From assembly GCF_003334765.1 (NCBI RefSeq), contig NZ_QOWT01000074.1: a stretch of DNA of 2,082 nucleotides. One strand, written 5' to 3'. This document shows positions 124 through 1,093 of this stretch, piece after piece. A program made the position numbers and the translations under genes. The stretch comes from Escherichia coli (lineage in GTDB: Bacteria; Pseudomonadota; Gammaproteobacteria; Enterobacterales; Enterobacteriaceae). The stretch's first letter is position 1. The number at the start of each line of letters is the position of its first letter. Below the pieces are notes generated by a model. The model ran no database searches, had not been told where the DNA came from, and saw only the letters and a program-made list of their open reading frames with translations.

Positions 124-324
124 TCACCAGCTACACAGTATACACACACTGACGCTGACAGTAGTCAGCAGGACCACAATAATCAGCGCCAGCAGTATGG
201 TAACGATACGGTCTGTATTCCGGTAGTAGCCGAAGGGGTCGACAGAACCACAATACGGGCAACACACTGTATTATGAGTAATCGCGTTTCCACAGTCCCT
301 GCACTTCTTTTTGCGTATCACCAT
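124..324 (-). CDS. Small zinc-ribbon protein with a C-terminal transmembrane helix (about 66 aa), function unknown
   Basis: ORF track 124..327 (-). The translation has a CxxC-x9-CCxxC zinc-ribbon pattern (CRDCGNAITHNTVCCPYCGS) followed by an uninterrupted hydrophobic stretch (IVTILLALIIVVLLTTVSVSVCILC), consistent with a single-pass or tail-anchored membrane protein. On the minus strand an AGGAGG Shine-Dalgarno (plus coordinates 335..330) sits 5 nt upstream of the ATG at 324..322, so I prefer the ATG at 324 over the GTG at 327. Not assigned to a named family. Confidence 0.6.
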   Translation of the reverse strand: MVIRKKKCRDCGNAITHNTVCCPYCGSVDPFGYYRNTDRIVTILLALIIVVLLTTVSVSVCILCSW

Positions 325-327
325 CAC

Positions 328-523
328 TCCCTCCTCACAGCCTTACCCGTAACCGGTTTTTTACATTAAAAAAACAACGCTGAAAATTCAACCGTCAGTC
401 CGGAGACGACCGTTCGGGTTATCACAGAGTGCCTGAGACAGTGTCCTGCCGGAGGTCACTTCAGGGACTCTGCGCATTTTTTACGACGTGGCTATTCCGT
501 ATGAACCATACGGAGATTTAACC
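328..523. promoter_or_regulatory. Divergent intergenic region, presumably carrying promoters for the minus-strand small gene and the plus-strand YagK/YfjJ-like gene
   Basis: 196-bp non-coding gap between two divergently oriented start codons. It contains an AT-rich palindrome (356..375) and a perfect 7-bp inverted repeat at 497..513. I found only weak sigma70-like hexamers (for example TTTACA at 360..365 on plus; TTGAAT/TAATGT on minus at 391..386 and 368..363), so no precise promoter is called. Confidence 0.3.
497..513 (+). promoter_or_regulatory. Perfect inverted repeat CCGTATG-aac-CATACGG overlapping the Shine-Dalgarno of the downstream gene
   Basis: Read directly: 497..503 CCGTATG, loop 504..506, 507..513 CATACGG (exact reverse complement). 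The GGAG at 511..514 is the likely Shine-Dalgarno for the ATG at 524 and lies partly in the 3' arm. Confidence 0.3.
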
Positions 524-1093
524 ATGACCTACAAATACAACCCCTTCTGGCAGCAACGTATTCGTGAGACGGTGCGGCACGCACTGAATGTTCATCCCCG
601 CCTGACGGCATTGCGGGTTGACCTGCGTCTCCCGGATGTACCGGCAGCAACGGACGCAGCTGTGATATCCCGCTTCATCAATGCCCTGAAAGCCCGAATC
701 GACGCTTACCAGAAACGTAAGCATCGGGAAGGTAAACGCGTGCATCCCACAACCCTGCATTACGTCTGGGCCCGGGAGTTTGGGGAGTGCAAAGGTAAAA
801 AACACTATCACCTGATGCTGCTGGTCAACCGGGATACCTGGTGTCGTGCCGGTGATTACCGCGCTCCGGAGTCTCTGGCCGGGATGATTAAACAGGCGTG
901 GTGCAGTGCCCTGGGAGTGGATGTCGGGTGCCATGCCACGCTGGTGCATTTCCCGGCCTGGCCGGCGGTGTGGCTGGAACGCGATGATGACACTGGCTTT
1001 CAGCAGGTGCTGGAACGTGCTGACTATCTGGCGAAGGAACATACCAAAGCTCACTGCACCGGTGAGCGCAATTTTGGCTGTAGCCGGAGTTGA
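524..1093 (+). CDS. YagK/YfjJ family protein (Pfam 'Inovirus Gp2'-like), putative replication-initiation or nicking protein of a mobile element
   Basis: ORF track 488..1093 (+). I recognise the overall sequence character (N-terminal MTYKYNPFW..., HYVWAREFGE, KKHYHLMLLVNRD) as the YagK/YfjJ family found in E. coli cryptic prophages CP4-6 and CP4-57; this is from memory, not a search. HYHLMLL at 803..823 resembles an HUH-type motif. Start preferred at ATG 524 (GGAG at 511..514, 9-nt spacer) rather than GTG 488, which would add 12 residues and place the 497..513 palindrome inside the coding sequence. Stop TGA at 1091..1093. Confidence 0.8.
   Translation: MTYKYNPFWQQRIRETVRHALNVHPRLTALRVDLRLPDVPAATDAAVISRFINALKARIDAYQKRKHREGKRVHPTTLHYVWAREFGECKGKKHYHLMLLVNRDTWCRAGDYRAPESLAGMIKQAWCSALGVDVGCHATLVHFPAWPAVWLERDDDTGFQQVLERADYLAKEHTKAHCTGERNFGCSRS

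Follow-up and report, generated by a model that had tools for sequence, protein, structure and literature searches.

An AT-rich inverted repeat between two divergent genes of an Escherichia coli genomic island, a likely divergent promoter core of the ordinary kind

Bidirectional sigma-70 promoters, in which the -10 elements of opposite strands overlap with their positions 2 and 6 paired and the two starts of transcription lie 18 bp apart, are enriched in horizontally acquired DNA, and an AT-rich spacer near -18 is reported to have a stimulatory effect (Warman et al., bioRxiv 10.1101/2020.01.31.928960; PMC12825309). The subject of this report is an inverted repeat at positions 356-375 of a 2,082-nt stretch of Escherichia coli DNA (RefSeq assembly GCF_003334765.1, contig NZ_QOWT01000074.1), the whole of which is referred to here as the window. 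The repeat lies between two divergent genes, a small zinc-ribbon open reading frame (ORF) on the minus strand and a gene of the YagK/YfjJ ("inovirus Gp2") family on the plus strand, called the Gp2 gene below. It is a real, conserved, AT-rich inverted repeat, and the reading that suits it best is the core of ordinary divergent promoters, not a special structural element.

The locus has several features in common with the bidirectional promoters, including a TANNNTA centre in which A(-11) of one strand pairs with T(-7) of the other, AT-rich flanks, a position between divergent genes, and a setting in horizontally acquired DNA. The centre, TACATTA at 362-368, carries overlapping -10 hexamers, TACATT on the top strand (362-367) and TAATGT on the bottom strand (368 to 363), whose positions 2 and 6 are paired just as they are in the bidirectional class, and the starts predicted from these hexamers are 374 (top) and 356/357 (bottom). 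The differences are equally clear, as the starts here are predicted and not mapped, the top-strand hexamer is not accompanied by a -35 element, and the better plus-strand candidate is a separate site whose -35 overlaps the minus-strand -10, with starts ~38 bp apart, not 18. The arrangement also recalls back-to-back divergent promoters, in that two core promoters appear to share one short AT-rich segment which RNA polymerase would occupy in one orientation at a time, but no regulator site was identified here and the competition is deduced from sequence. The likeness to UP elements and phased A-tract bends goes as far as the presence of A and T tracts for which curvature is predicted. The tracts number only two and follow each other in the T-then-A order, which is weakly bent, and they lie between the -35 and +1 of both predicted promoters and not at -40 to -60, where the corresponding regions (338-358 and 393-413) are not AT-rich, so that the suggestion of a UP element, made in an earlier reading of the DNA from its letters alone (hereafter the sequence-only reading), is not supported.

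Positions 356-375 read GTTTTTTACATTAAAAAAAC, and the arms, each of 7 nt and 100% complementary across a 6-nt gap, are found exactly where the sequence-only reading had placed them; an alternative register pairs TTTTTTA (357-363) with TAAAAAA (367-373) across a 3-nt gap. That reading had described a T6 and an A6 tract, of which the first is as described, whereas the A run is 7 nt long (368-374). The repeat falls inside the 199-bp gap between the small ORF and the Gp2 gene, 32-51 bp upstream of the annotated small-ORF ATG (position 324, minus strand), in agreement with the ~30 to 50 bp that had been claimed, and 149-168 bp ahead of position 524, where the annotation starts Gp2. With A or T at 18 of its 20 positions it has the highest AT content of any 20-mer in the window, and it contains two TpA steps. 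Chance expectations for repeats and runs were obtained from dinucleotide-preserving shuffles of the window. Perfect 7-nt inverted repeats with a loop of at most 10 nt occur in 6 registers at 4 places (1.6 +/- 1.5 in the shuffles), and there are 6 runs of A or T of at least 6 nt against 0.64 +/- 0.79 expected, a count reached by no shuffle. Because the run count so far exceeds that of the shuffles, the adjacency of two long tracts is more than chance. The caution that low-complexity sequence makes such a repeat plausible by chance was fair, and the symmetry itself bears no sign of selection. As a structure the repeat is negligible and forms no meaningful hairpin: single-stranded DNA of 346-385 folds with -4.5 kcal/mol (z -1.09), a stability reached by 27 of 200 shuffles. 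An intrinsic terminator was considered as well; the terminator scan gave no site here, and just a 3-bp CCG/CGG stem precedes the T6 tract.

As the sequence-only reading proposed, the two divergent genes share a control region in which the repeat lies, and on both strands the best promoter-like sites overlap it. A scan with a position weight matrix (PWM), built on approximate consensus frequencies, ranked the minus-strand site second and the plus-strand site third in the whole window, each being the best on its intergenic strand, and the plus-strand site, TTTACA-16-GAAAAT, was picked up by a consensus scan too (9 of 12 matches). TACATTA is the sole TANNNTA of the intergenic region. We propose from these matches that the palindrome is the core of two overlapping, back-to-back sigma-70 promoters shared by the zinc-ribbon ORF and the Gp2/YfjJ gene, a proposal for which we judge the chances to be about even. 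Both strands would then take a -10 hexamer from the centre TACATTA, and the key position A(-11) of one would pair with T(-7) of the other. On the bottom strand, TAATGT together with TTGAAT at a distance of 17 bp would start the small-ORF mRNA at ~356/357, giving a leader of ~32 nt before the ATG that holds a GGAGG ribosome-binding site, as is normal for a gene such as the small ORF, and on the top strand TTTACA, made up half of the T tract and half of the centre, would serve as the -35 for GAAAAT, with a transcript from ~394 and a leader of ~130 nt ahead of Gp2. Since the best predicted sites on both strands overlap the repeat, the T6 and A7 tracts would represent spacer, discriminator, and -35 sequence. 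Their AT-rich DNA may aid both the binding of RNA polymerase and the opening of the duplex, and the palindrome would reflect the symmetry of the promoters. Because RNA polymerase would bind at overlapping sites, its occupancy of one should block the other. The anatomy of the sequence, its position, and its conservation within E. coli are shown here, whereas the start of transcription at the repeat, the relative strength of the two predicted promoters, and their mutual exclusion are inferred.

Within E. coli the repeat is well conserved. In an alignment of 12 E. coli/Salmonella copies the intergenic region has a mean column identity of 92%, and the repeat is present in 12 of 12. The conservation in related islands that the sequence-only reading named as a check is found among the E. 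coli/Salmonella copies. The repeat and the small ORF are both absent from seven Gp2 loci of other genera (Rouxiella, Enterobacter, Salmonella, Serratia, Cedecea, Klebsiella, and Pectobacterium; 63-69% protein identity), and their joint absence speaks for the promoter reading. Alleles were counted by a pattern scan of metagenome contigs, which yielded 123 independent copies. The minus-strand promoter keeps its -35 in 112 of these, its -10 in 103, and its spacer of 17 nt in 93. Copies with the GCATT allele, in which the -10 is broken, have a degenerate small ORF in 10 of 19 cases, compared with 22 of 102 other copies (Fisher p 0.009), an association that is only suggestive because the lineages are not independent. 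A pattern scan of viral contigs gave 3 loci only, and a scan of genome contigs for the Gp2 protein gave two short contigs only, which resemble E. coli contamination.

A number of observations weigh against the promoter reading. In random 2-kb sequences the best PWM score is 10.8 +/- 1.4 and the third best 9.0, whereas the observed scores are 9.07 and 8.5, and TANNNTA occurs at chance frequency. The predicted small-ORF promoter has an appropriate -35, -10, spacer, and distance to the gene, yet its score lies within the random range, and it is thus a consensus match only. The top-strand hexamer TACATT has no usable -35 in the PWM scan. The plus-strand -10 is GAAAAT in 69 of the 123 copies but GGGAAT in 50, and the 20 copies with G at 363 would lose A(-11) on the top strand and T(-7) on the bottom strand, although a full-length small ORF is still present in 17 of the 19 G363 copies with enough flanking sequence. 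Column identity is ~0.89 across the repeat and 0.82-0.96 elsewhere in the intergenic region and in the Gp2 gene; it falls sharply only left of ~270, inside the small ORF. As the sliding identity profile is similar on the flanks, the repeat is conserved but no more so than its surroundings. A literature search that included the exact repeat sequence found no start-site or expression data, and the regions upstream of K-12 yagK and yfjJ have no homology to the intergenic region of the window, so the start-site resources for K-12 are inapplicable. It is the chance-level scores, the GGGAAT allele, the lack of a -35 for TACATT, and the outcome of the literature search that keep our estimate for the promoter core at about even.

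The same observations bear on what else the repeat may be. That it has no specific function, its low-complexity tracts being passengers of a highly similar island module that spread recently and its symmetry being incidental, is in our judgment unlikely, even though this would account for a conservation equal to that of the flanking coding and non-coding DNA, a hairpin energy that is not significant, promoter-like scores in the random range, and Gp2 loci of other genera that are without the repeat. It would also account for the fate of the symmetry, which is mostly not restored when one arm has changed, as CT5 replaces T6 in 15 copies and a matching G is found in the A run of 2. It does not account so readily for the small ORF, which needs a promoter within ~60 bp and has its best candidate at the repeat, nor for T6 beside A7, which by the run counts is far above expectation, nor for a segment that is kept where the coding sequence of the small ORF has diverged to 63-76% protein identity. 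Quite unlikely, too, is a docking site of bent, AT-rich DNA at which nucleoid proteins, either H-NS with the Hha paralogue of the island or Fis/IHF, would silence or shape the divergent promoters. The intrinsic bending expected by the sequence-only reading was supported by a wedge-model estimate, in which a local bend at 363 has 17.8 degrees per turn and falls in the 99th percentile of the window, and the repeat is the most AT-rich 20-mer of the window with its two TpA steps. A Hha/YmoA-family gene lies directly beyond the small ORF in native contexts, and bidirectional promoters are easier to detect without H-NS (Warman et al., bioRxiv 10.1101/2020.01.31.928960; PMC12825309). However, the AT-rich stretch spans just ~20 bp in a region of ~50% GC (60-nt windows of 0.38-0.50, and 0.53 for the window as a whole), which is not the extended AT-rich DNA of an H-NS nucleation or silenced region. 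H-NS filaments require long AT-rich tracts. The proposals of IHF and Fis binding fared no better, as the IHF consensus WATCAANNNNTTR is found nowhere in the window at up to 1 mismatch, and the degenerate Fis site (a 15-bp core of G, AT-rich sequence, and C) has none over 356-375 and 5 one-mismatch matches in the window, which is the chance level (3.4 expected). The T-then-A order of the tracts is itself weakly bent, T4A4 giving 8.2 and A4T4 24.7 degrees per turn in a control run, which reproduces the known difference between these two sequences. A slippage-prone homopolymer that would alter the length of the spacer and hence promoter strength, as in phase variation, is barely credible. The A run does lie in the spacer of both predicted promoters and varies from 5 to 8 nt among the copies, but its length tracks the haplotype and is not independent of the flanks, all 22 A8 copies having one identical flanking sequence and A7 being found in 90 of 123 copies, and runs of 7 are short for contingency loci.

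The remaining explanation makes the repeat part of a replication origin or nick site of the Gp2/YfjJ protein, with the T6/A7 repeat as an unwinding or extrusion element and the T-run-plus-AC motif TTTTTTAC, one copy of which lies inside the palindrome, as the sequence that is recognized. We consider it very unlikely, both as a reading of the repeat and in the specific form in which TTTTTTAC would be the recognition or nick sequence of an HUH-fold Gp2 protein and the repeat its duplex opening site, and keep it alive because of the HUH fold predicted for the neighbor protein, with its invariant HYH and YxxK, and the three copies of TTTTTTAC. These copies (357-364, 477-484, and 1179-1186) are on the coding strand and always intergenic, where 0.05 would be expected on both strands, and the copy at 1179 is within the loop of a hairpin at 1170-1193. 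In addition, a T run followed by AC (T5-7, then A1-2C) is kept ~47 nt upstream of the ATG of Gp2 genes in six other genera. Like the double-strand origins of rolling-circle replicons, the repeat is upstream of an HUH-fold gene, is easily melted, and has a T-rich motif ending in AC; unlike them, it has no GC-stabilized hairpin and is not conserved across genera. The seven other-genus loci have no equivalent at the position of the repeat, which itself forms no stable hairpin, whereas a rolling-circle origin would be expected to have a hairpin or nick motif conserved next to the rep gene across relatives. The third copy of TTTTTTAC is confined to one E. coli haplotype group, which weakens the three copies as a conserved set of sites, and in other genera the T run behind the Gp2 gene forms the tail of a hairpin that resembles an ordinary terminator. 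The literature gives no nicking activity for the YfjJ/YagK/Gp2 family. The DNA-unwinding element suggested by the sequence-only reading has only indirect support, from the fold of the neighbor protein, and the repeat is absent in other genera. The features discussed here and below are collected in Table 1.

Table 1. Positions of the inverted repeat, the predicted promoters, and neighboring features in the window
Feature	Positions	Strand	Details
Left arm GTTTTTT, T6 tract	356..362		T6 in 108/123 and CT5 in 15/123 metagenome copies
Centre TACATTA (TANNNTA)	362..368		Loop ACATT in 103/123 and GCATT in 20/123 metagenome copies
Right arm AAAAAAC, within A7 run 368-374	369..375		A7 in 90/123, A8 in 22/123 (single haplotype), A6 in 8/123, interrupted in 3/123
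Predicted sigma-70 promoter of small ORF	363..391	-	-35 TTGAAT (391 to 386), 17-nt spacer with T7 run, -10 TAATGT (368 to 363)
Predicted sigma-70 promoter facing Gp2 gene	360..387	+	-35 TTTACA (360-365), 16-nt spacer with A7 run, -10 GAAAAT (382-387)
Leader hairpin, arms 425-436 and 461-472, then CGCA and T6 (477-482)	425..482	+	Between predicted plus-strand start and Gp2 gene
Hairpin TCCGTATG-AAC-CATACGGA, overlapping GGAG ribosome-binding site of Gp2 gene	496..514	+	Stem kept, loop length variable
Small ORF, 66 aa, N-terminal CxxC...CxxC zinc ribbon, then hydrophobic C-terminal stretch (zinc-ribbon/membrane)	124..324	-	Annotated as hypothetical or zinc-ribbon protein
YagK/YfjJ ("inovirus Gp2") gene, predicted HUH-nuclease-fold protein	524..1093	+	

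The predicted leader of the Gp2 gene (394-530) folds with a z of -2.81. Its hairpin at 425-472 and the T6 that follows resemble an attenuator. The loop of the second hairpin, at 496-514, is AAC or AACGAAAC among E. coli copies, and the equivalent position in other genera also has a hairpin, though one that differs in sequence, which suggests translational control of Gp2. Deletion variants are rare; one metagenome contig joins ~392 straight to ~519, with the loss of the whole Gp2 leader.

The window has matches in 3816 of 5426 complete E. coli genomes (~70%), usually at 2 places per genome, and the locus is a module of a tRNA-associated E. coli genomic island. In the best match the annotation lists a 66-aa hypothetical or zinc-ribbon ORF, an "inovirus Gp2 family" gene, and two zinc-ribbon genes from 1353, and the island also holds Ag43, a YfjI-family gene, and many insertion sequence (IS) elements. 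Homologues of the small ORF come nearly all from E. coli, and 89 of 121 copies have an intact ORF that includes both CxxC motifs, some others being frameshifted or without the second CxxC. Its C-terminal half diverges sharply (column identity of 0.44-0.68 left of ~270), while the start of the ORF and the intergenic region are at ~0.9. Two metagenome contigs delete ~258-346, in which the start of the small ORF is gone and the palindrome is kept. The Hha/YmoA-family gene is found immediately beyond the small ORF and convergent with it in native island copies, often truncated or frameshifted, and in the closest genome match its place is taken by IS66 sequence.

The Gp2/YfjJ protein is predicted to have an HUH-nuclease fold, on the basis of a match to Pfam REP_ORF2-G2P at 5e-5, the invariant HYH and YxxK, and a confident structure model (predicted local distance difference test, pLDDT, of 85). 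A sequence search of the PDB gave no match, NCBIfam nothing significant, and PHROGs only families of unknown function, and the literature on YfjJ/YagK/Gp2 consists of genome descriptions only. A search of the window against Rfam with E up to 1 gave no match. In other genera the Gp2 gene and the Zn_ribbon_11/DUF7828 genes are separated by an alpA-family gene; the corresponding part of the E. coli window, 1094-1346, has no ORF. The 8-mer ACACACTG is found four times on the plus strand (144, 262, 1508, and 1689), and only 4 of 300 random sequences had an 8-mer with a multiplicity of 4.

The predicted HUH fold of the YfjJ/YagK family and the structured leader of the Gp2 gene are the more interesting by-products of this analysis, and the fold offers a concrete biochemical test for these islands. 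Were TTTTTTAC the recognition or nick sequence of the Gp2 protein, the module would be a hidden unit of rolling-circle-type replication or mobilization in genomic islands that are common in E. coli. Should the promoter reading be true, the repeat would be another symmetric, AT-rich promoter of the type typical for horizontally acquired DNA, which would aid annotation and would not be surprising, and a segment of 20 bp would set the expression of two uncharacterized genes in ~70% of complete E. coli genomes.
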